Below, in pieces: positions 17,279 to 49,478 of a stretch of 64,000 nt of DNA (position 1 is the stretch's first letter; every line of letters starts with the position of its first letter). The position numbers and the translations under genes were made by a program. The DNA comes from a virus. The stretch lies in the IMG/VR virus record IMGVR_UViG_3300035670_000027. One strand, given 5' to 3'. The notes beneath the pieces were generated by a model that saw nothing but the letters and a program-made list of their open reading frames with translations, was not told the origin of the DNA and ran no database searches.

Positions 17279-17491
17279 TTATTGCTTATCTATAAAAGTT
17301 TTTAGAACCTCTGCTTCGTTCAGAATTTCTTTAGTGCTTGGAAACTCTGGCACTTCAGTTAGAGAAAGTTTCTCTTCTGCAATGTCTGCGTTTCTTCGTG
17401 CAACTTCAAATTTCTGATAATAGCGTTGGGTCAATTGATCCTGTGCCATCTTCAAAAGTTCAAGACGAATTTCATATGGTGTTTTAGTCAT
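17279..17491 (-). CDS. Conserved phage hypothetical protein (MTKTPYEIRLELLKMA)
   Basis: AAGGAG SD upstream of ATG 17491. Confidence 0.65.
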   Translation of the reverse strand: MTKTPYEIRLELLKMAQDQLTQRYYQKFEVARRNADIAEEKLSLTEVPEFPSTKEILNEAEVLKTFIDKQ

Positions 17492-17523
17492 AGTAATACT
17501 CCTTTTTGTGTGTGTGATAAAAA

Positions 17524-17850
17524 TGGTAGGTGATTGGGTAATAAGGTCCACCTACCGAAACCCCAGGAGGTTACGCCGCTAGGCGATATTCTCCAAAGTC
17601 TGCATCGTTTGCATTTACTCTTTTTGCTTCTACGGCCAGGTTGTCCTAACCCTACGGCTTTCGCATTGCCGGATCGTCCATTTCACTACTCTTTATCCTG
17701 TCGAAACCAGGTCACCCCCATCAGAAGCATACTGGCAACACCGACCATAAAGGTTCTCTTTACGATGTTTACAGTCCAATATGCTTTTGGTGGAGGTGGG
17801 CGGAATCGAACCGCCGTCCAGAACACCTTTCGATCTACTTCATACGATCA
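17524..17850 (-). ncRNA. ssrA: Circularly permuted (two-piece) tmRNA
   Basis: Acceptor piece ends GGTTCGATTCCGCC-CACCTCC-ACCA at 17788. An intervening hairpin follows, then the coding piece starting GGGGGTGACCTGGTTTCGAC at 17719 (G3.U70 pair). Tag ORF 17612-17571 reads ANDADFGEYRLAA*. Outer boundaries approximate. Confidence 0.93.
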
Positions 17851-17855
17851 TACTT

Positions 17856-18638
17856 TTATTTATAACGCAATAGCGTATCCGATACTGCAAATTCGGCAGG
17901 CTTCATCGGAAAATACTTCATCATCTTATCAACATTCAATACGCAATTGCTTCGTGGTGCGGTAGTAATTGACTTAAACTCTTCTTCCGTCATCCACTCT
18001 TTTTCAATACCCATCTTTGCTACAATTTGTTTACCAGTAATGCCACCTGGATTGCATACATTGTAAATACCAAATGGTGGTTTTGTTACAATAAAATGTG
18101 CGACACACTTTGCCAACTCTTCAACTTGCGTAATGCTATTCTCAAAACTGATTAGTTTACTATACAGTTCAAACTTTGTCAAGAGATTCTTTGGCGTTCG
18201 ATCAGGACCAAACGGCATCCGAATTCGAAATAGGTAAGAATTGTTAAGGTGTGGTTTGAGTAGTTCTTGCTCTAAGCCTTTACATGCGCTATAGAATGAT
18301 GCATTGTTAAAGGTGAAATTGGGTGCATCTTCTTCGGTCCAGCCACCGTCTTTGTAGCCAGTATAGATGCAACCACTAGAGATATGAAGAATAGGAATCT
18401 CATTTGCCCTCTTTTCTAGTTCCAATGGAAACAAAACATTGCCTTGCACACATTCATCTTTATAGATTTCACATGCATCAACATTTGGTACGCCAGTAAA
18501 ACCTGCGGCATTTACAATAAACTTTGTGTCTTTTGGTAGTGCATCATCGTGTCGAATATGGTTGTATTTCATTCCATATTCATCAAAATATTTTACAATA
18601 TAGCCAGCAACATATCCATGACCAATCAAAGTAATCAT
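17856..18638 (-). CDS. NAD-dependent epimerase/reductase (RmlD-like)
   Basis: LIGHGYVA, NAAGFTG.PNVDACE, HISSGCIY, SFYS..K, RIRMP. Confidence 0.85.
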   Translation of the reverse strand: MITLIGHGYVAGYIVKYFDEYGMKYNHIRHDDALPKDTKFIVNAAGFTGVPNVDACEIYKDECVQGNVLFPLELEKRANEIPILHISSGCIYTGYKDGGWTEEDAPNFTFNNASFYSACKGLEQELLKPHLNNSYLFRIRMPFGPDRTPKNLLTKFELYSKLISFENSITQVEELAKCVAHFIVTKPPFGIYNVCNPGGITGKQIVAKMGIEKEWMTEEEFKSITTAPRSNCVLNVDKMMKYFPMKPAEFAVSDTLLRYK

Positions 18639-40340: not shown

Positions 40341-41189
40341 CTAGTCGATAGATACAACTTTTGGAAGATAAGGATCAGTTTTATCTTCACCACGCTCATA
40401 TCCAACATAACCTCTTGGATTACAGACGATGCGAGTATTGCCAACCATGTAGTCAAACTCATGGTGAGTGTGACCATGTGTCCACAATTTGATTTGTGGG
40501 CGGTCAAGAATAAACTCACTTAGATCGGAACTGTAACCACCGTTCATCAATGTGTCATTCTCATACATTGGCTTGGTCGAAAGTTTGCTAGGCGAATGAT
40601 GACCAACGACAACATACTTTGCAGTAGGATCGTTTTCAATCACCACTCGGATATAGTCAAGCATTTTCTTGTGATCCTCAACCGCATCTTCAGGACAGAA
40701 TCTTGCAACTCTCTCATGAAACTTGCCTTCATCATCTTTGAAATTGACCACACGATTGCTATTGCGAACAATGCGAAAGTCATTCATTCTACTCTTAATA
40801 TGATACAGAGTGAGTGAATCTTCTTTGTTCATATCTGTCCAAAGAGTACCACCAATGAATGTCACATCATCGATTTTCACACATGATTTATCAAGAAAAA
40901 CAATTCCTCTTTCAGCACATGCTTCACCTAACAGTTTGTGTGATTCTGCAAAGTCACCATTGTAATGTTCATGGTTACCCATGACATAGATGACATGCTT
41001 GTACTCTTTCTTGCAGTTATCAAGAAAGTCTAGAAAGCGATCCGTTTTGTGTGTGCCATACAAATCTGATGCAACCATAATGTCGCCAGATAGAATAAGC
41101 ACATCTGCACCTTCGGGATTGACTGGATACCAGTCACCGAATTCAAGATGAATGTCGCTAGTGATTGCAATTTTCATGATTAACTCCAT
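40341..41189 (-). CDS. Calcineurin-like metallophosphoesterase
   Basis: SDIHLE, GD, GNHE, HH.P, HGHTH, NPRGY. Confidence 0.9.
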   Translation of the reverse strand: MELIMKIAITSDIHLEFGDWYPVNPEGADVLILSGDIMVASDLYGTHKTDRFLDFLDNCKKEYKHVIYVMGNHEHYNGDFAESHKLLGEACAERGIVFLDKSCVKIDDVTFIGGTLWTDMNKEDSLTLYHIKSRMNDFRIVRNSNRVVNFKDDEGKFHERVARFCPEDAVEDHKKMLDYIRVVIENDPTAKYVVVGHHSPSKLSTKPMYENDTLMNGGYSSDLSEFILDRPQIKLWTHGHTHHEFDYMVGNTRIVCNPRGYVGYERGEDKTDPYLPKVVSID

Positions 41190-41199
41190 TTACTACAGT

Positions 41200-41276
41200 T
41201 GGTACGGATGGCGGGACTCGAACCCGCAGGACTCAGATTTTAAGTCTGATATGTATACCGATTCCATCACATCCGC
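41200..41276 (-). tRNA. tRNA-Leu(UAA), short variable loop
   Basis: Cloverleaf, anticodon loop CTTAAAA, CCA. Confidence 0.9.
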
Positions 41277-41284
41277 AAAATTAC

Positions 41285-41313
41285 ATTATACTAAAATTTG
41301 CTCTGAATGTCAA
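41285..41313 (-). promoter_or_regulatory. Consensus sigma70 promoter
   Basis: TTGACA-17-TATAAT. Confidence 0.85.
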
Positions 41314-41453
41314 TGAACCAGTCGCAAGAGGTGGAAAAAGTTTTCATGGTATAACAACCTAGAAAGTCTCCTGTGTATATAAGCAATGCCGTGAAAATCA
41401 TCATGGCAAATATGATTGCCCAATCTTTTATTTTTTTCATATCACTATCCTTA

Positions 41454-41540
41454 TGGCGGAGAGTATAGGATTCGAACCTATGCGCCTCTTTCGAAACGAC
41501 GGATTAGCAATCCGCTACATTACCACTCTGTCAACTCTCC
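41454..41540 (-). tRNA. tRNA-Ser(GCU)
   Basis: Long variable arm, loop TTGCTAA, CCA. Confidence 0.92.
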
Positions 41541-41545
41541 ATGAT

Positions 41546-41619
41546 TGGAGCGGCTAGCGAGAATCGAACTCGCATCCGAACCTTGGCAAGGTCCCGTTCT
41601 ACCATTTAACTATAGCCGC
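41546..41619 (-). tRNA. tRNA-Gly(GCC)
   Basis: Loop TTGCCAA, TCCA end. Confidence 0.92.
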
Positions 41620-41624
41620 ATGTT

Positions 41625-41714
41625 TGGCGGAAGCGGTGAGATTCGAACTCACGGTGCCTTTCGACACGACAGTTTTCAAGACTGTTGCAATAAACCGGGC
41701 TCTGCCACGCTTCC
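41625..41714 (-). tRNA. tRNA-Ser(UGA)
   Basis: Loop CTTGAAA, long variable arm. Confidence 0.92.
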
Positions 41715-41719
41715 TTATT

Positions 41720-41796
41720 TGGTGCCTCAGGCGGGAGTCGAACCCGCAAAATCCAGTTTCTAAGACTGACATGTATACCAATTCCATCACCGAGGC
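41720..41796 (-). tRNA. tRNA-Leu(UAG), short variable loop
   Basis: Loop CTTAGAA. Confidence 0.9.
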
Positions 41797-41797
41797 T

Positions 41798-41872
41798 TGG
41801 TGCCGAATGGTGGGTTCGAACCACCGACTTACGCCTTATCAAGACGCCACTCTACCGCTGAGTTAATCCGGC
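41798..41872 (-). tRNA. tRNA-Ile(GAU)
   Basis: Loop TTGATAA. Confidence 0.9.
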
Positions 41873-41944
41873 AAAACTTTATTGTACATTACCACGAATC
41901 CACTTCCAGTATTCTTCTGCTGACATGTGATTCTCCTTTATGTA

Positions 41945-42020
41945 TGGTGCCACCTGTTGGAATCGAACCAACTTCCTCGGCTCTTCAGACCGGTGCAATG
42001 ACCACACTTGCTCAAGTGGC
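41945..42020 (-). tRNA. tRNA-Phe(GAA)
   Basis: Loop CTGAAGA. Confidence 0.88.
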
Positions 42021-42022
42021 TT

Positions 42023-42098
42023 TGGTGCGCCTAGTAGGATTCGAACCTACGATCCATCGATTATGAGTCGATTGCCTTGACCGCTTGGCTATGGGCGC
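42023..42098 (-). tRNA. tRNA(CAU), probably Ile2 (lysidine)
   Basis: Loop CTCATAA; the two other CAU tRNAs fit Met and fMet. Confidence 0.8.
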
Positions 42099-42099
42099 A

Positions 42100-42174
42100 T
42101 GGTACCCGGTGACGGGATTGAACCGCCGACATTCGCCTTGTAAGGGCGCTACTCTACCGCTGAGTTAACCGGGC
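42100..42174 (-). tRNA. tRNA-Val(UAC)
   Basis: Loop CTTACAA. Confidence 0.92.
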
Positions 42175-42178
42175 AAAA

Positions 42179-42254
42179 TGGGGTAACCTATGAGGATCGA
42201 ACTCATACTATCTCGGTCACAACGAGAGGTGCAGACCACTACACTAAGGTCACC
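42179..42254 (-). tRNA. tRNA-His(GUG)
   Basis: Loop TTGTGAC, G-1 and C73. Confidence 0.9.
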
Positions 42255-42259
42255 ATTGT

Positions 42260-42336
42260 TGGCTACGGCGGAGGGATTCGAACCCCCAACATACAGTTTT
42301 GGAGACTGTCGTTCTGCCAGTTGGAACTACGCCGTA
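42260..42336 (-). tRNA. tRNA-Trp(CCA)
   Basis: Loop CTCCAAA. Confidence 0.9.
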
Positions 42337-42343
42337 TCGTTTT

Positions 42344-42418
42344 TGGCTGGGGCACAAGGATTCGAACCTCGGAATGCCGGAATCAAAATCCGGTGCCTTA
42401 CCGCTTGGCGATACCCCA
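42344..42418 (-). tRNA. tRNA-Gln(UUG)
   Basis: TGGGGTATCGCCAAGCGGTAAGGCA start, loop TTTTGAT. Confidence 0.95.
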
Positions 42419-42421
42419 ATG

Positions 42422-42892
42422 TTATGCGGCTACTGCGTACTTGAATCTGTCTGCCGCATGTGTCGCCGCCCATGCATGTGGCTTCACTAAAGGAATCACA
42501 TTGCATGTACCACGAATGTAGCCTATTGCTTCGTTGATCACACATGAAGAACCATGCATTTCATTTGGATTGATATCTAAATGAACTTCAACATGACGCC
42601 CTTCTAGTACATCTGCAAGTTTCAAATACATTTCACTTGCTTTGTACACTTCATTCATTAGTCTGAATCTTGGTCGATCAATCTTTTGGTCGTAATCTCT
42701 TTCACGATCTACTTGACCAAAGAGTTTGCATCCATTGTTGCCGTTGATATGCACTACGATTGCAGTAATGTAATCAGCATACCACACTTCACCTAAGCGG
42801 AATCGTTCTGAATCGCAACCTAGGTAAATCTTTGTTTCTGCCGACTGTCTTGCAATGTATTCTCTTACTTCTTCTAGGTTCAATTTTCTCAC
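42422..42892 (-). CDS. RNase H-like YkuK (DUF458) family protein
   Basis: IYLGCDS, TAIVVH, RL..EV, VHLDIN, KP.AWAA..AAD. Confidence 0.8.
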   Translation of the reverse strand: MRKLNLEEVREYIARQSAETKIYLGCDSERFRLGEVWYADYITAIVVHINGNNGCKLFGQVDRERDYDQKIDRPRFRLMNEVYKASEMYLKLADVLEGRHVEVHLDINPNEMHGSSCVINEAIGYIRGTCNVIPLVKPHAWAATHAADRFKYAVAA

Positions 42893-42916
42893 GATCCACT
42901 CCTTTCGTATATTTAA

Positions 42917-42992
42917 TGGAGCGGGTAGTGGGTATCGAACCCATCTACTTCAGTTTGGAAGACTGACATGTATCCATAAACACCTTACCCGC
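42917..42992 (-). tRNA. tRNA-Gly(UCC)
   Basis: Loop CTTCCAA, TCCA end. Confidence 0.9.
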
Positions 42993-43404
42993 AATACTCT
43001 ATAAACTCTTCGTACATTTTGTCGCCAAGTTTGTTGGCTTCGATTTCCCATGGATGATCTTCATAAGGTACAACATCCGAGTTGACCTTGCGTGACTTCC
43101 ATTTGGTTAATTCTTCGTTGATTTCATTTCTGACAAACTGACGAACATGAACCATCTCATGCGCCATTGTTTGAATTTGAGTGTTTTGATCATCTTCTTT
43201 GGCAATTTCCATGATGAAATAGCGTGGTTCTCCGACCACATTATAGTCATCGACATATACTGCCCCATAATCACTACTGTTTGATACAAACTTCACACGG
43301 ATATGCAAATTGGCAATCATCTGTGGAGAGAACAATCTCTCGGCAAAAAAATTCAAAGCCTTTTTCTGTTTCGATTTTATTCGTGAACCATAGAGATTTA
43401 GCAT
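42985..43404 (-). CDS. HExxH metallopeptidase-like protein
   Basis: AHEMVH.RQ...PWEIEA. Confidence 0.7.
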   Translation of the reverse strand: MLNLYGSRIKSKQKKALNFFAERLFSPQMIANLHIRVKFVSNSSDYGAVYVDDYNVVGEPRYFIMEIAKEDDQNTQIQTMAHEMVHVRQFVRNEINEELTKWKSRKVNSDVVPYEDHPWEIEANKLGDKMYEEFIEYCG

Positions 43405-43446
43405 ATCAACCTCCTTTCATCACATATTTATCCATTACAATATTTC

Positions 43447-43523
43447 TGGTCGGAGATGCAGGATTCGAACCTGCGACCCTCTGCTCCCAAAGCAGATGCG
43501 CTACCAGACTGCGCTAATCTCCG
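43447..43523 (-). tRNA. tRNA-Pro(UGG)
   Basis: CGG start, loop TTTGGGA. Confidence 0.95.
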
Positions 43524-43527
43524 AAAT

Positions 43528-43601
43528 TGGTGCCCTTGGTCTGAATCGAACAGACAGTCACGGATTACAAAACCGTTGGTTTACCACTAACCGACAAGGG
43601 C
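43528..43601 (-). tRNA. tRNA-Thr(UGU)
   Basis: Loop TTTGTAA, GCCC acceptor. Confidence 0.85.
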
Positions 43602-44531
43602 AATGTTACTCATTTGCTTTTCGACCATCTCAACATACTGGTCTTTTACTTTCTCGCCATTGTTCTTGTATAAGTCACAAGCACAATAGGCACAATTCTT
43701 ACCGACAACCAAATAATTCAGTACAATGTGTTTATAATTCTGATTCATGCTTTCGTACTTAAAAAACTCAGTTACATCAACACCGTTCTTCCAAAGCAAA
43801 TCAATTGAATTGAACACTAACGACCTTTGGTCGAAATGCTTCAAACCGTTCACTTGCAAAAACTCCATGTACTTTTCAGGATTCAATCGTATCAGACTAT
43901 ACAGTATGCTATAAACTGTTCCTAATTTATGCGACAACTCTCTTGAAATAAACAAGTCTGCAACATCGCTAACTAAACCATATTTTGATACATCGTTAAT
44001 TGCACCTTTGTCCCAAAGAAAGTTCCAGTCATTTCGAATCATGTAGTCTAGCAAGTCTCTAAGTCTACTAGGTTCTCCATCATTTGTCAAGTATGAATAC
44101 CTACCACATTTGTAATCTAGCATGTAATACGACTGAGCATTTTCCTCATCATATAACACATAGTCTAGCACATCTACCGATGAAAACTCAAAGATGGTAG
44201 AGTTTAAAACAATTGTTCCTTCTTTGACACCACATGTGCCAATGAAGTCTGGAAAGAATGGCTGATACTTCTCTTGAAAAATGCCAGTCTTACCTTTGAA
44301 ACATTTTTTTGCTACTTGATATCCTAAATAAAAGATATCAGTCTTTTCTAAAATCTCATATCTGAGATCATCGAATTCTAGCATTGTGTGATAACGATAT
44401 GGAACACCAACGCCTTTGTAGTAACACTTGTTACCTTTTGAAACTCTGCCATTAATGTGTTGAATATCATCATCAATACTCAACTCATTTATCTGCACAC
44501 CTAACGAATCATAAATCGGAACTATAGTCAT
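43587..44531 (-). CDS. Hypothetical protein within the tRNA array
   Basis: 314-aa ORF, AAGGA SD, C-terminal CAYCAC. Confidence 0.65.
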   Translation of the reverse strand: MTIVPIYDSLGVQINELSIDDDIQHINGRVSKGNKCYYKGVGVPYRYHTMLEFDDLRYEILEKTDIFYLGYQVAKKCFKGKTGIFQEKYQPFFPDFIGTCGVKEGTIVLNSTIFEFSSVDVLDYVLYDEENAQSYYMLDYKCGRYSYLTNDGEPSRLRDLLDYMIRNDWNFLWDKGAINDVSKYGLVSDVADLFISRELSHKLGTVYSILYSLIRLNPEKYMEFLQVNGLKHFDQRSLVFNSIDLLWKNGVDVTEFFKYESMNQNYKHIVLNYLVVGKNCAYCACDLYKNNGEKVKDQYVEMVEKQMSNIALVG

Positions 44532-44543
44532 ATGTTATCCTTT

Positions 44544-44618
44544 TGGTGGTGATGGCAGGAGTCGAGCCTGCAACCTCTGCCGTATGAAGGCATTGCACTA
44601 CCATTGTGCTACATCACC
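44544..44618 (-). tRNA. tRNA-Met(CAU), elongator
   Basis: Loop TTCATAC. Confidence 0.88.
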
Positions 44619-44625
44619 TATACTT

Positions 44626-44809
44626 AGCCATTAGTGAGAGTACTGCCATATCCGTTTAATGCCTTTAGATAAAACGGCATCTCTTACCTTAGTAACCATC
44701 TATCGAGGCTGACTAATTCCTCATCTAGGCGATGGCGGTAGAGAGCGGTATTCCCTCGGCAGTCAGGTCGCTAGTCAAGCACCTCGCTTTCGGACTCTCA
44801 CTAATGGCT
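44626..44809 (-). ncRNA. Candidate structured ncRNA (184 nt)
   Basis: Perfect 16-bp closing stem AGCCATTAGTGAGAGT/ACTCTCACTAATGGCT with nested helices; no ORF. Confidence 0.6.
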
Positions 44810-44879
44810 CCAGAGGTAGGGATCGAACCTACGACACACGGATTAACAGTCCGCTGATCTACCGCTGATCTACTCTGGA
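44805..44879 (-). tRNA. tRNA-Asn(GUU)
   Basis: Loop CTGTTAA, GCCA end. Confidence 0.92.
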
Positions 44880-44880
44880 A

Positions 44881-45114
44881 CAGGTGCTTCCTCTCTGCGG
44901 CGGTAATTATAGTCTATGTGGTCTTTGCTTTCGCTATACATAAACCTTCCACCCGCTCCTCGACCAGAGAGGATTGTCGCATTGCCAGCGCCGGTTCGGT
45001 TTGACCTGCCCTTGTGAGGCAATCTCATTTTCCATGAGATGGAACCACCCATGAGTAACGAACTCATTTCTCCTTCCTGCGGGTCACAGTAGCCAAGCGT
45101 TACCTCGGCGGGGT
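44881..45114 (-). ncRNA. Candidate ornate structured ncRNA (~235 nt)
   Basis: Multiple hairpins and long-range helices between tRNA-fMet and tRNA-Asn; GC-rich; no credible ORF. Confidence 0.65.
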
Positions 45115-45115
45115 C

Positions 45116-45191
45116 GGTAGCAGAGGCAGGATTCGAACCTGCGATTCTCGGCTTATGAGACCAAGCGGATAGACCTCTTCCATACTCTGCG
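45116..45191 (-). tRNA. tRNA-fMet(CAU)
   Basis: C1 mismatch, loop CTCATAA; 3' end encoded as ACCG instead of ACCA. Confidence 0.85.
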
Positions 45192-45196
45192 AAACT

Positions 45197-45271
45197 TGGC
45201 GGTCTCAACGGGAATCGAACCCGTCCCTGCGCCGTGACAGGGCGCTATACTAACCGATATACTATGAGACC
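45197..45271 (-). tRNA. tRNA-Asp(GUC)
   Basis: Loop CTGTCAC. Confidence 0.92.
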
Positions 45272-45281
45272 AATATTTAGT

Positions 45282-45310
45282 ATTGTACAACAAAAAACTT
45301 GATTTGTCAA
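45282..45310 (-). promoter_or_regulatory. Internal sigma70 promoter in the tRNA array
   Basis: TTGACA-17-TACAAT. Confidence 0.75.
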
Positions 45311-45311
45311 G

Positions 45312-45385
45312 TGGTAGGGGCACGGAGAATCGAACTCCGGTTAATAGGTTAAAAGCCTACTACTTTGCCACTAAGTTATACCCCC
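45312..45385 (-). tRNA. tRNA-Lys(UUU)
   Basis: Loop CTTTTAA. Confidence 0.9.
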
Positions 45386-45393
45386 ACAAAATC

Positions 45394-45468
45394 TGGCACC
45401 ACCTGAAGGAATCAAACCCTCAACTCAAGGTCCGTAGCCTAGCGTGATATTCATTTCACTAAGGTGGT
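45394..45468 (-). tRNA. tRNA-Arg(ACG)
   Basis: Loop CTACGGA; somewhat divergent D and T loops. Confidence 0.8.
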
Positions 45469-45475
45469 ATAAAAC

Positions 45476-45553
45476 TGGAGTGAGGAGTGGGATTCGAACC
45501 CACGATACAAGAGTTTTGCAGGCTCCGCCATTTGACCGCTCTGGCATCCTCAC
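45476..45553 (-). tRNA. tRNA-Cys(GCA)
   Basis: Loop CTGCAAA, U73. Confidence 0.88.
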
Positions 45554-45558
45554 ATGAA

Positions 45559-45634
45559 TGGTGGAGAGTATCGGGTTCGAACCGATGACCTCCTGCTTGC
45601 AAAGCAGGCATTCTCCCAACTGAACTAACTCCCC
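45559..45634 (-). tRNA. tRNA-Ala(UGC)
   Basis: G3.U70, loop TTTGCAA. Confidence 0.93.
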
Positions 45635-45740
45635 ATATTGAAGCACACCGACAGTATCGAAACTGCCCACACCGCCGAAAGACGATGCTAGGTCCACTCC
45701 CAAGGCCGGCGCCGTCTAGCCTTAGTGTGCTTCAATATGG
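45633..45740 (-). ncRNA. Candidate tRNA-mimic ncRNA with extended closing stem
   Basis: 17-bp stem CCATATTGAAGCACACT/GGTGTGCTTCAATATGG enclosing four arms, including a TTCGAT T-like loop. Confidence 0.55.
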
Positions 45741-45825
45741 TGGGTGGTGATGGTAACGCTCCACGAGGCAACTTCCGATCTTATTATGCCGACGGTTTTA
45801 CAGACCGCTGACCGGGGCACCACCC
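45738..45825 (-). tRNA. Atypical D-arm-less tRNA-Tyr(GUA)
   Basis: 7-bp acceptor plus ACCA, anticodon arm GCGGT-CTGTAAA-ACCGT, 10-nt D replacement, large variable arm, T-loop AGCGTTA. Confidence 0.65.
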
Positions 45826-45833
45826 ATAAACTT

Positions 45834-45955
45834 CCATTTGAAATGCTGACTGCACTATTTGCTATACCTCATATGCTTTATCTAGAATTACATCTTATCG
45901 GTATAGTTACTCAGGCGTTGCACCGCCCATGGCTTACAATCAGCATATCAAATGG
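45834..45955 (-). ncRNA. Candidate structured ncRNA (~120 nt)
   Basis: Long closing stem CCATTTGATATGCTGA/TCAGCATTTCAAATGG with two internal hairpins. Confidence 0.5.
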
Positions 45956-45977
45956 TGCCCACCGGGCACCGAAACTT

Positions 45978-46154
45978 TTACAATTTATCAGCAATCTCAA
46001 CTTCGAAACACAATCGATTCGAAATTGTTCTTGCCACTTGAATCCAAAACAAACTTCTTTCAGATTCTAATTTATCGAAAACAAACTTTACGATTTTGAC
46101 ATTATCAAAGTCGCACTCTTTTTGAATCAACTCAACAGTCTTATCAACTTTCAT
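45978..46154 (-). CDS. Small hypothetical protein
   Basis: GAGG SD, MKVDKTVELIQKECDF start. Confidence 0.5.
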   Translation of the reverse strand: MKVDKTVELIQKECDFDNVKIVKFVFDKLESERSLFWIQVARTISNRLCFEVEIADKL

Positions 46155-46175
46155 TTGTTTCCTCTCAAAATTAAG

Positions 46176-46250
46176 TGGTACACCGTAGGGGAATCGAACC
46201 CCTCTTACCGCCGTGAAAGGGCGGTGTCCTAACCGATAGACGAACGGTGC
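46176..46250 (-). tRNA. tRNA-Glu(UUC)
   Basis: Loop CTTTCAC. Confidence 0.93.
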
Positions 46251-46251
46251 A

Positions 46252-46327
46252 TGGCCTGCCCGGCAGGAATCGAACCTGCGACCCATTGCTTAGAAGGCAA
46301 TTGTTCTATCCTCTGAACTACGGGCAG
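46252..46327 (-). tRNA. tRNA-Arg(UCU)
   Basis: Loop TTCTAA, GCCA end. Confidence 0.92.
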
Positions 46328-46343
46328 AAAAGACTTTCCAGAT

Positions 46344-46355
46344 TGTTAAAGAGCG
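46344..46355 (-). promoter_or_regulatory. rrn-type boxA antitermination site
   Basis: CGCTCTTTAACA versus rrn consensus TGCTCTTTAACA; lies between the promoter and the first tRNA. Confidence 0.8.
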
Positions 46356-46376
46356 ATTTCTCAACCAACAAAAGAG

Positions 46377-46429
46377 AGTATACTCTACATCTCATCGGTT
46401 GTCAACACCTAGTGTTGTTTTCCTACGAC
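46377..46429 (-). promoter_or_regulatory. sigma70 promoter of the tRNA array
   Basis: TTGACA-17-TATACT plus a GTTG-N8-CGAC box variant. Confidence 0.8.
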
Positions 46430-46434
46430 ACACA

Positions 46435-46469
46435 AACAAAAACCCCCAACTTTTTTAGGGTTGGGGGTC
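46435..46469 (-). terminator. Intrinsic terminator (candidate attenuator)
   Basis: GACCCCCAAC-9nt-GTTGGGGGTT followed by TTTGTTT. Confidence 0.8.
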
Positions 46470-46495
46470 TTTGGTATTAGTGAGTACTTACTAAC

Positions 46496-46609
46496 TTATC
46501 CATTGACCCCCATTCGATCCTCATTGCATAGAATGGCAGGTGTGCGTGACCATGCAAATGGCATTGCACTCTTTCCTGTTCTATACTGGAGGTGGGTTAT
46601 GGATAACAT
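46496..46609 (-). CDS. Candidate attenuator leader peptide (37 aa, all 20 amino acids)
   Basis: AAGGAAG SD; MLSITHLQYRTGKSAMPFAWSRTPAILCNEDRMGVNG*; TGGGGGTC in the last codons is complementary to the terminator 5' arm. Confidence 0.7.
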   Translation of the reverse strand: MLSITHLQYRTGKSAMPFAWSRTPAILCNEDRMGVNG

Positions 46610-46663
46610 TGAAAATACTTCCTTTTGAAAAAATTTATTTATCATCTTCTATATATGCAAACT

Positions 46664-46870
46664 TCACTCTGAATTCTTCATTTTGATATAATTTTTGTTT
46701 AAAAATCCTAACAAAAATAGTGCCGCTAACCATTCAAAGAATCCAAATGCAATTGTAAGACCAAACAATGTATTAAGTGACCAGATAAAAATAAATGGTG
46801 CTACAAGAATTGCTATGATTGCTACGATTAAAAGGGTGATTAAAACACCGCCGCCTAAATTTTCTTTCAT
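46664..46870 (-). CDS. Small membrane protein
   Basis: P...IWSLNTLF, hydrophobic. Confidence 0.6.
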   Translation of the reverse strand: MKENLGGGVLITLLIVAIIAILVAPFIFIWSLNTLFGLTIAFGFFEWLAALFLLGFLNKNYIKMKNSE

Positions 46871-47052
46871 TTAAAAAACTCCTCATCATCGAAATTATCT
46901 TCGTCAAAGTCTTCCGGATTGAAATTCTTCAACTTCTGTTTTGCCTTTAGTCGATCTTTCTTATTCTCTTTGGGTTGCTTCTTAGGCTTGCCAACCTCTT
47001 CTTCTTCATAGAACTCACGAAAACTCTTGTACTTTTTATCCGTCTTAGACAT
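46867..47052 (-). CDS. Small charged hypothetical protein
   Basis: Operon-coupled ORF. Confidence 0.55.
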   Translation of the reverse strand: MSKTDKKYKSFREFYEEEEVGKPKKQPKENKKDRLKAKQKLKNFNPEDFDEDNFDDEEFFK

Positions 47053-47053
47053 G

Positions 47054-47500
47054 TTAGTTTACTCTTTCTCCTACAAACAGAGATGGAATTGCCTCCTCTA
47101 CAACTTTTCGTGTGATGCCTTTGTATTTTAGTTTCTTGTCCTTGATCATCAATACAAGTTTCGCTTCTTCTGGAGATACAGTTTCAAGCATTTGAATAAA
47201 CATCTGCTCTTTCTTTGCTCTAGTCAAATTGTTTGGTATGCTCTTTACGAAATACTTAAACTTCTTGATCTCTTTAGGTAGTCTATTATAGCCCCAATTT
47301 TCTGGCATGTCAAGTGGTTTGTATGGGGGATCGCCTGCTGGTAGATCAATCTCTACATCAACACGAAACACCAATTCAAACACATCCCGAAAGCCAGGAA
47401 CAACTTTTGTCAATTGACGAATTGCATCAACCTTTTTACTTGCCGGTAATTCCTCAATGTGCTTGAGTAGTTCCGGGAAAGTCATTTTGCTAACATCCAT
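47054..47500 (-). CDS. Conserved T4-like hypothetical protein (DUF6433-like)
   Basis: LP.G.PPY, E.MFIQMLE...PEEA.L....KDK.L.YKGIT. Confidence 0.65.
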   Translation of the reverse strand: MDVSKMTFPELLKHIEELPASKKVDAIRQLTKVVPGFRDVFELVFRVDVEIDLPAGDPPYKPLDMPENWGYNRLPKEIKKFKYFVKSIPNNLTRAKKEQMFIQMLETVSPEEAKLVLMIKDKKLKYKGITRKVVEEAIPSLFVGERVN

Positions 47501-48377: not shown

Positions 48378-49478
48378 CTAATTTGTCACTCTAACAATAA
48401 TTGTATCAGAATTCATCCTACCTGTCAAGTTTGTTTCCTTGGTAGTCAAGTCTGGTAGAATCTTCTTAATCTGAACTTTGCCAGCACTCAGCACATTCGG
48501 CAAAACAATCTCAGGCTTTCTCAATCGTTTGCCAATGGATGTTTGCTCATTGAAATTCTGTAGTGTGCTACCTTTGACTGTAATGCCTTTTGCATTGTCG
48601 GCATTGTAGACACCAAGTAACTTCGTTTTGGTATTGTATGTCCACACTTGTAAAGCACCAACAATCTTTTCTGGTGCAATGCTGACAAGATTCAACTCAG
48701 GAAACTCTTTCATGTAATTCATCTTTGCGACAACAAGCACCGCTGGCTTTTCTTTCACTCTGCGCTTTTTGCGAGTAGGCTTGTTTGCAACTGCACCAGC
48801 ATTGGCGGCAACGACAATTGAATCAAGAAACTCTTTGAACTTACGCAACTCTACTTTTGAAAAGTTTGAGTAACCTTCTTTCAACTGAGGATCATCGGTG
48901 ACCATTACTTCTTCAATCTCTTTTGCTCTCTCAACAAACACATCGCAAATTCGATTCATGACAACTGAAGATAAACTACGAGATTTGAAATACGAACTCA
49001 TGTCGATGTTTTTCTTGCAACCAGACATAATGAAATCATCAATCATACCTTCAATCTCGCCTGCTTCTTCACTTGCTTTCTCACGAATGCGGTCTTGAAT
49101 GCTTACCTTTGGTGTAGTATCTTCTACAGGCAAAGGATCATTCTTCAGACTGTTGTTAGCCATAGTCAAAAGAGTGTCATAGAACTCTTTGAATCTTTCG
49201 ATTGTTTTTTGTGAGGGTTTGAAGCCGAGAGTAAACATTCGTGCAAGCCATCCAAACTGTACAATGTACTTTGAATCTGGCAATGAACGAAATGCCGCAA
49301 TGACTTCTTTGGATTTGTTTGTTGCTTTGAGATAGTCGAGTACAAATTCTTTTGCGTCTTTCTTGTCGCAAGAGTAATTGTAAAAATTGAAAGCGCCCAT
49401 AATCTCGCTTTGCTCATTGTACTCTTCTTTGTTGATCCAATTTGGTTCAGTACCTAAATCAGATTTGATCTTTCTCAT
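48378..49478 (-). CDS. Conserved T4-like hypothetical protein
   Basis: FNFYNY, QL.EGYS, VWTYNTK..L..Y, VKG.TL, K.LRKP, GR.N. Confidence 0.7.
   Translation of the reverse strand: MRKIKSDLGTEPNWINKEEYNEQSEIMGAFNFYNYSCDKKDAKEFVLDYLKATNKSKEVIAAFRSLPDSKYIVQFGWLARMFTLGFKPSQKTIERFKEFYDTLLTMANNSLKNDPLPVEDTTPKVSIQDRIREKASEEAGEIEGMIDDFIMSGCKKNIDMSSYFKSRSLSSVVMNRICDVFVERAKEIEEVMVTDDPQLKEGYSNFSKVELRKFKEFLDSIVVAANAGAVANKPTRKKRRVKEKPAVLVVAKMNYMKEFPELNLVSIAPEKIVGALQVWTYNTKTKLLGVYNADNAKGITVKGSTLQNFNEQTSIGKRLRKPEIVLPNVLSAGKVQIKKILPDLTTKETNLTGRMNSDTIIVRVTN

Follow-up and report, generated by a model that had tools for sequence, protein, structure and literature searches.

A Candidate All-Amino-Acid Leader Peptide Attenuator Ahead of a Phage tRNA Array

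Introduction

Large phage tRNA sets are usually explained by codon usage, by compensation for the degradation of host tRNAs, or by escape from anticodon nucleases, and we know of no regulatory sensor for them. From this perspective, the locus described here raises the question of what a short open reading frame (ORF) and an intrinsic terminator may be doing directly in front of the tRNA genes of a phage. An initial annotation of this DNA had proposed that the two form an attenuator able to sense the whole tRNA pool. Here, we compare this proposal with what relatives of the locus, RNA folding, and simulations of ribosome position have to say about it. What can be directly established concerns the sequence features, their conservation, the selection for completeness, the alternative pairings, and the covariation of these pairings; from these we infer that the leader ORF is translated, in which direction it regulates, and which physiological signal it reads.

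The locus lies in a 64,000-nucleotide stretch of viral DNA (IMG/VR record IMGVR_UViG_3300035670_000027), hereafter called the window. The source is an uncultured T4-like myovirus, whose RNase H/flap endonuclease shares 56% identity with its counterpart in Methylophilales phage Melnitz and about 52% with cyanophage proteins. Public DNA runs containing positions 46200–46900 of the window come from subsurface, freshwater, and other metagenomes, and no RNA runs were found among the public runs containing this interval.

A Short ORF and an Intrinsic Terminator Precede the tRNA Array

All features of this section lie on the minus strand. The leader ORF (46496–46609) opens with an ATG at 46609 and comprises 37 sense codons followed by a TAA stop (46498–46496), and a Shine–Dalgarno (SD) sequence, AAGGAAG, is found at 46624–46618, the ATG being 8 nt further on. 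The SD and the 37-codon ORF that had been annotated ahead of the array, on the same strand, are indeed seen at these positions. Another in-frame ATG at 46645, without an SD, delimits a possible N-terminal extension of 12 codons (46610–46645), and a start there instead of at 46609 would give a 49-codon version of the leader. The array itself (41200–46327) consists of 25 tRNA genes for 19 amino acids, with a few ORFs interspersed, and begins with a tRNA-Arg(tct) starting at 46327; the initial count had been 26, and ARAGORN and Rfam each detect 25. A canonical tRNA-Tyr was found in the array neither by ARAGORN nor by Rfam at E ≤ 1, and a tRNA-Tyr(gta) is the third array gene in the relatives L010 and L014.

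Between the leader ORF and the array, the terminator that had been proposed was located at 46472–46438 (46438–46472, hairpin of −18.7 kcal/mol, 13-bp stem and U tract). Its 5′ arm (46472–46460), which contains GACCCCCA, corresponds to region 3 of an attenuator, its loop spans 46459–46451, and its 3′ arm together with the U tract (46450–46438) corresponds to region 4. Region 2, the 5′ arm of the antiterminator, is the 8-nt TGGGGGTC (46512–46505), which occupies codons 33–35 of the leader ORF, 13 nt before the stop codon, and is complementary to GACCCCCA (46469–46462), which confirms the perfect complementarity reported between the last codons and the terminator 5′ arm. The extension of the antiterminator through TGG/CCA and an inner palindrome is likewise recovered, the best fold containing a spacer (46473–46504) whose inner hairpin (TGG/CCA plus TTAGT/ACTAA) closes the antiterminator. 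As for region 1, it corresponds to codons 2–7 of the leader ORF (46589–46606) and pairs with the region of the arm made of five consecutive Gs (G5) in the fold of the full-length RNA. Judged in silico, the locus shows a short ORF with a start signal, an intrinsic terminator, and a mutually exclusive antiterminator in the last codons, as leader-peptide attenuators do; the feature of such attenuators that it lacks is a run or an enrichment of codons for a sensed amino acid, since the codons of no amino acid form a run in the leader and each residue mostly occurs once or twice.

Right after the terminator U tract, and abutting or overlapping the −35 box of a downstream promoter, lies a small conserved inverted repeat (46404–46431), which reads CAACAC-TAG-GTGTTG in the window and GTGTTGT-A7-ACAACA in relatives. 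This repeat may serve as an operator, form a second hairpin, or mark a processing site.

The Unit Recurs in Uncultured Relatives

Relatives were gathered through the neighboring rnh gene and through DNA-pattern scans (three of IMG/VR and one of metagenomes) by a rule that is blind to amino acids, namely a G5 ... C5 ... G4–5 T-run pattern and an ATG ORF of 30–44/45 codons ending just after the first G5. This yielded 25 distinct homologous ORFs of 35–42 codons, in IMG/VR and metagenome contigs of uncultured relatives, and all 25 variants display the same order of an upstream gene, the leader ORF, the terminator, and then the tRNA array, with the first tRNA 35–135 nt past the terminator in relatives. 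The initial expectation that ORF-plus-terminator units would be found before the tRNA arrays of related phages is accordingly borne out. The variants fall into four groups, with an identity of 12–46% between groups and of 12–29% between groups 1–2 and groups 3–4. The gene upstream of the leader encodes a small membrane protein in groups 1–2 and is another gene, abutting the start codon, in groups 3–4; a translation start signal is kept in all groups, either as an SD or as a stop/start junction with the upstream gene. The open frame of the 12-codon extension is kept in groups 1–2 only. Because the leader is absent from some relatives that do bear a tRNA array (L018–L025, L033–L038, and L050), the element appears to be accessory.

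Beyond these relatives, neither blastn of the region nor tblastn of two leader variants gave a match among cultured phages (50,697 records), and, among 1.84 billion protein representatives, a search with a profile of the leader returned 8 matches and no wider family beyond this locus. These 8 matches include leader copies (P0004, P0006, and P0007, which were fetched), two artifacts (P0001 and P0002), and three longer proteins (190–1930 aa). In P0001 and P0002, public gene calls stretch leader homologs to 145–162 aa by reading TGA as Trp, an artifact that hides the short ORF. A cmscan against Rfam (E ≤ 1, 40500–47500) found no family over the leader, the only matches being tRNAs and chance-level ones, and Pfam gave no match bearing on the switch for the ORFs neighboring the leader.

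Amino Acid Completeness Is Maintained and Codon Diversity Is Not

A recount of 46609–46496 agrees that the leader encodes 20 of the 20 amino acids with 31 distinct sense codons. Under the amino acid usage of this phage, the probability of finding all 20 in 37 codons is ~0.003, and none of the 132 other ATG ORFs of 33–45 codons in the window reaches even 19 amino acids. Such a probability, taken alone, is weak for a feature that was picked by eye, and it is the comparative data that settle the question of chance. All 20 amino acids are present in 18 of the 25 leader variants and 18–19 of them in the other 7, and the alignment reveals that the positions of the rare residues Cys, Val, Tyr, and Trp shift from group to group. 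We simulated the evolution of completeness along a minimum spanning tree, starting from a complete ancestor and redrawing, on each edge, no residues other than those in which its two ends differ: a mean of 2.1 and a maximum of 9 sequences out of 17 stayed complete, when 14 out of 17 are observed, a value that none of the 4,000 runs reached, whether the amino acid composition was that of the proteome, that of the family, or uniform. Since no run matched the observation, it is selection that keeps the leader complete in amino acids, and it does so while the peptide sequence drifts. Selection on which residues a peptide contains, and not on their order, is rarely seen; here, completeness is retained at 12–29% identity.

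The same does not apply to codons. Given the peptide, 28.9 distinct codons are expected in the window against the 31 observed (P = 0.17), and among the variants L028 and L042 alone reach nominal significance for codon diversity. Of the two figures that had struck the initial annotation, the 20 amino acids are unusual, then, and the 31 codons are not; of the pattern that it expected in relatives, amino acid diversity and low peptide identity are found, and high codon diversity is not. The preference for different isoacceptors at repeated residues does not go beyond chance, and the notion of a sensor of all tRNAs has to be reworded to the extent that the signal sits at the level of amino acids. 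Because the choice of isoacceptors is within chance, the evidence argues for an all-amino-acid leader and not for an isoacceptor sampler.

Might the ORF simply encode a small functional peptide, the terminator merely ending its transcript and the variety of amino acids being a by-product? Some residues are shared across groups (Met-Pro in the middle of the ORF, Ser-Arg, Thr-Pro, and a Gly near the end), several third-position changes within groups 1–2 are synonymous, and leader peptides can act in trans, as peTrpL does. However, the conserved residues coincide with near-invariant nucleotides or predicted stems, the peptide has no relatives outside the locus either among the 1.84 billion protein representatives or in cultured phages, and a function of this kind gives no reason for 35–42 residues to keep 20 of 20 amino acids while drifting to 12–29% identity with their rare residues moving. 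On balance, we deem a functional peptide quite improbable, and a leader whose composition matters through its decoding is the reading pursued below.

Mutually Exclusive Pairings Are Conserved and Partly Covary

When the nascent RNA is folded as it stands before the terminator 3′ arm is made, the best fold pairs G5 with C5 in 22 of the 22 variants folded; in these, the antiterminator ranges from −16 to −29 kcal/mol (z-scores of −2.6 to −6.3 relative to shuffles) and the terminator from −12 to −23. G5 starts 12–16 nt ahead of the stop codon, which itself ends 25–36 nt ahead of C5. From group to group, differences in one arm are compensated in the other: group 1 pairs U-G5-UC to GA-C5-A, group 2 pairs A-G5-C to G-C5-U, and groups 3–4 pair G5-CUUGU to ACAAG-C5. 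In an alignment of 19 sequences, 83% of the cells of the antiterminator helix are paired and 4 of its 11 pairs have changed on both sides, a number that was matched in 8 of 500 column shuffles and that falls to at most 1 when the partner is slid by 1–3 columns. The terminator is 99.5% paired across the 19 variants, with two compensatory pairs. The covariation that had been predicted for the arms is consequently found, in four antiterminator and two terminator pairs, and it is suggestive rather than conclusive because the counts come from few independent events, mainly the divergence of group 1 from the rest.

The structure extends into the ORF. In the window, the 196-nt region folds at −67.9 kcal/mol (z = −5.4 vs. 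shuffles). In groups 1–2, a long hairpin joins the beginning of the ORF to the G5 region, in which 7 of 42 consensus pairs are compensatory and which, as modeled, would represent an anti-antiterminator joining region 1 to the G5-arm region; groups 3–4 have a short local hairpin in its place, with no covariation seen. One may wonder on these grounds if the element is a structured noncoding RNA, such as a small RNA or a processing signal heading the tRNA transcript, in which the open frame would be incidental, and both the fold, far better than that of shuffles, and the compensatory changes of the long hairpin in groups 1–2 would fit such an RNA. Yet the open frame, the start signal, and a similar length persist in 25 of 25 variants despite indels, the frame stays open in groups 3–4 where the hairpin architecture is very different, no Rfam family matches, and an RNA structure cannot account for the completeness in amino acids. 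We regard a purely noncoding function as very unlikely.

The terminator is the preferred equilibrium fold of the full-length RNA, and the nascent RNA prefers the antiterminator even without a ribosome. As the nascent and the full-length RNAs favor opposite folds, the outcome of the switch would depend on kinetics.

The terminator sequence GCCCCCTAGCCTAAAAACTAGGGGG also recurs between convergent genes in L081, L083, L097, L098, and L113, where it is accompanied neither by a leader ORF nor by an upstream G5 arm. We see in it a terminator module of repeated use, and in these copies a natural negative control.

Ribosome Position Would Determine Which Amino Acids Are Sensed

In order to see which codons could matter, a ribosome footprint was masked at each codon in turn and pair probabilities were computed in the nascent RNA of eight variants (the window and seven others). 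The antiterminator has a probability of about 1 with the ribosome at any codon but the last 7–9 and the stop, where this probability drops to 0. With a leading edge of 14 nt, one to three amino acids per variant are restricted to the masked tail, these being Asp, Glu, and Val in the window; a permutation test found no depletion of such tail-only residues. Unwinding of mRNA by the ribosome is reported to occur some 11 nt past the first base of the P site, that is, at A-site +8. With the edge placed there, no amino acid is missing upstream of the masked zone in any group-2 variant or in L028, L042, and L044 (P = 1e-4 to 2e-3 for each); the number found there is 19 in the window and 15–18 in group 4, whose Gly, Ala, and Val are kept only in the masked tail. 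The residue that the window lacks upstream is Val, which had already been flagged as occurring only inside the antiterminator arm and is confirmed to do so; the 12-codon extension would add Glu and Val upstream of the masked zone. Because some residues occur only in the masked tail, not every variant can literally sense the 20 amino acids: as modeled, the statement that every amino acid is sensed would hold fully in some lineages and nearly so in the window.

Promoters Around the Leader and the Target of the Switch

The leader is flanked by promoters on both sides (all on the minus strand). Downstream of the terminator, the sigma70-type promoter noted initially is confirmed as TTGACA-17-TATACT at 46405–46377 (46377–46405), and a boxA-like CGCTCTTTAACAA (46343–46355) lies between this promoter and the first tRNA. 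A near-consensus TTGACA-16/17-TAnnnT promoter is shared by the window and most relatives; as it directly follows the terminator, the array would be expressed in them without read-through. In L048/L066, however, the downstream promoter is lost entirely (the best sigma70 match over 65 nt is 7/12) and the boxA-like site is kept, and the promoter is damaged in L005, which has lost the −35 element, and in L006, which has lost the −10 element. All of these retain a complete leader, and since an intact promoter is missing there, the head of their array would depend on read-through. As a side observation, the boxA-like site is kept in relatives as TGCTCTTTAACAA or CGTTCTTTAACAA, including in those without the promoter, and its sequence suggests a possible rrn-type antitermination over the untranslated array.

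Upstream, the operon of the window comprises rnh, DUF6433, and two small ORFs, and consensus sigma70 promoters are found at 48428–48400 and 47313–47285. The second (47285–47313) is a perfect 12/12 match to the sigma70 consensus that lies inside the DUF6433 ORF (47500–47054) and points to the leader; on sequence grounds, the leader transcript may originate there. A late-like element, GATAAATA, had also been noted upstream of the leader, and it turns out to be specific to the window, the relatives reading GACAAATA. A late promoter at the leader was considered and rejected: TATAAATA occurs four times in the window, which is not above chance, and none of these copies is at the leader. The conserved upstream motif ATATATAGA showed no enrichment in the window.

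This arrangement bears on whether the element is an attenuator with another target or sign, which would insulate the upstream operon and tune the occlusion of the strong downstream promoter instead of raising tRNA synthesis, or in which a close coupling of ribosome and polymerase would promote read-through, efficient translation then leading to more of it. In most variants, a near-consensus promoter and a boxA-like site do follow the terminator, whose sequence is used at other sites of related phages simply to terminate transcription in both directions, and the antiterminator is favored by the nascent RNA even without a ribosome, so that kinetics decide. Against this, lineages without an intact downstream promoter still keep a leader with 20 amino acids, and the element always abuts the tRNA array, whichever gene is upstream; besides, with a stop codon 25–36 nt before C5, a terminating ribosome would be too far away to cover the terminator stem. 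We consider another target or sign rather unlikely, and we take the tRNA array as the target and slow decoding as the cause of read-through in what follows.

A Possible Gauge of Decoding Speed

Of the four readings weighed here, the one we favor, with a rough probability of 0.6, is that the unit is a ribosome-mediated transcription attenuator whose leader ORF gauges, in a general way, how fast codons are decoded. The initial idea of an attenuator is supported as regards the conserved unit, the diversity of amino acids, and the covarying arms; it did not hold as regards the sampling of isoacceptors, the late element, and the 26 tRNAs.

Under this scenario, the leader would be carried on transcripts arriving from the upstream operon (in the window, that of rnh, DUF6433, and the two small ORFs). 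Once made, GACCCCCA would pair with TGGGGGTC in codons 33–35, and the resulting antiterminator would block the terminator hairpin. If the ribosome had already reached about the last 7–9 codons or the stop, it would cover the G5 arm, the terminator would form, and transcription would end; if decoding were slow at any earlier codon, the G5 arm would be free and the polymerase would enter the boxA site and the tRNA array. The switch would in this sense be a race, in which transcription would stop only if a ribosome covered the G5 arm while the terminator was being transcribed and in which any delay upstream would mean read-through. Decoding could be slowed by the lack of any charged tRNA, by tRNA cleavage, or by a general translation stress, and the presence of every amino acid in the leader would ensure that the synthesis of phage tRNAs goes up when almost any one of them runs short. 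Plentiful decoding would shut the extra transcription of the array off, as a negative feedback. The early-type promoter of the window would have its transcripts supplemented by those that read through from upstream promoters, and because the array has this promoter of its own, the switch would add to array transcription and not be its sole control. We speculate that this contribution would count mainly once the host-type promoters have been silenced, as they are in T4.

We would give even odds to the stronger claim that this is a dedicated gauge of decoding capacity, in which the time taken to translate a 20-amino-acid leader sets transcription into the phage's own tRNA array, with a homeostatic and possibly anti-defense role. 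If true, this would be the first case of leader-peptide control of tRNA genes, one in which the depletion or cleavage of any host tRNA is answered by making phage tRNAs. It would also provide a concrete, testable circuit for how and when phages express their tRNA sets, widen classical attenuation from one amino acid to the whole decoding apparatus, and supply a small natural module of about 170 nt from which the speed of translation could be read out for any amino acid.

Comparison with Known Attenuators

The element appears to follow a known logic, that of four-region attenuation, in a new place, phage tRNA genes, with an all-amino-acid content replacing the codon run. As in the trpL, hisL, pheL, thrL, leuL, and ilv leaders, the 3′ end of the ORF overlaps region 2, regions 2 and 3 form the antiterminator, regions 3 and 4 the terminator with its U tract, and a ribosome at the stop would mask region 2. 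The leaders of amino acid operons contain runs of codons for the amino acid of their own pathway and control promoterless genes for biosynthetic enzymes; unlike them, the phage leader has no runs and one to few codons per amino acid, the controlled genes are RNA genes, and a second promoter usually follows. T-box riboswitches and the pheST (pheM) leader couple the state of tRNAs or of their charging to terminator read-through before genes of the translation apparatus, T-boxes by binding one uncharged tRNA directly, without the need of a ribosome, and pheM with a specificity for Phe. The phage element would resemble them in tying a tRNA or charging pool to read-through ahead of translation-apparatus genes, and the cmscan of 40500–47500 (E ≤ 1) gave no Rfam match to a T-box at the locus. 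The boxA-like CGCTCTTTAACAA between promoter and first tRNA is reminiscent of rrn leaders, and to our knowledge no bacterial rRNA or tRNA operon is gated by a leader peptide.

The closest known functional analog is the mycobacterial whiB7 (wblC) upstream ORF (uORF) attenuator, in which many amino acid, tRNA, and synthetase deficiencies induce read-through and in which the removal of Trp or His codons from the uORF abolishes the response to the matching starvation (PMC10274678). The uORF of Mycobacterium smegmatis encodes 19 of the 20 amino acids, and that of M. tuberculosis lacks several (PMC10274678). Both systems have an upstream ORF, translated in whiB7 and predicted to be so here, before an intrinsic terminator with a competing antiterminator, and both have a broad amino acid content, which in whiB7 sets the starvations that are sensed (PMC10274678). 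They differ in that whiB7 belongs to Actinobacteria and controls a transcription factor, with an alanine-enriched uORF of variable content that is not reported to be kept complete, when the phage element stands ahead of tRNA genes and packs 20 amino acids into 35–42 codons with no alanine enrichment. As the profile search found no relatives outside this phage locus, no sequence relation to whiB7 is seen. Our literature search found no publication on a leader-peptide switch before tRNA genes or on a leader complete for the 20 amino acids.

Other Features of the Array and of the Window

The array contains a 540-nt gap (45635–46175, minus strand) after tRNA-Glu, and three ORFs lie within the array (42422–42892, 42985–43404, and 43587–44531, all on the minus strand). 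One of them is an RNaseH_like protein (PF04308, E = 1e-17), and the 314-aa and 139-aa ORFs have no significant match in Pfam. Elsewhere in the window, ARAGORN detects a permuted two-piece tmRNA (17480–17880, minus strand) with the tag peptide ANDADFGEYRLAA, and TATAAATA is found at 17864–17857. A phage-encoded tmRNA and a switch responding to decoding speed may be related themes.
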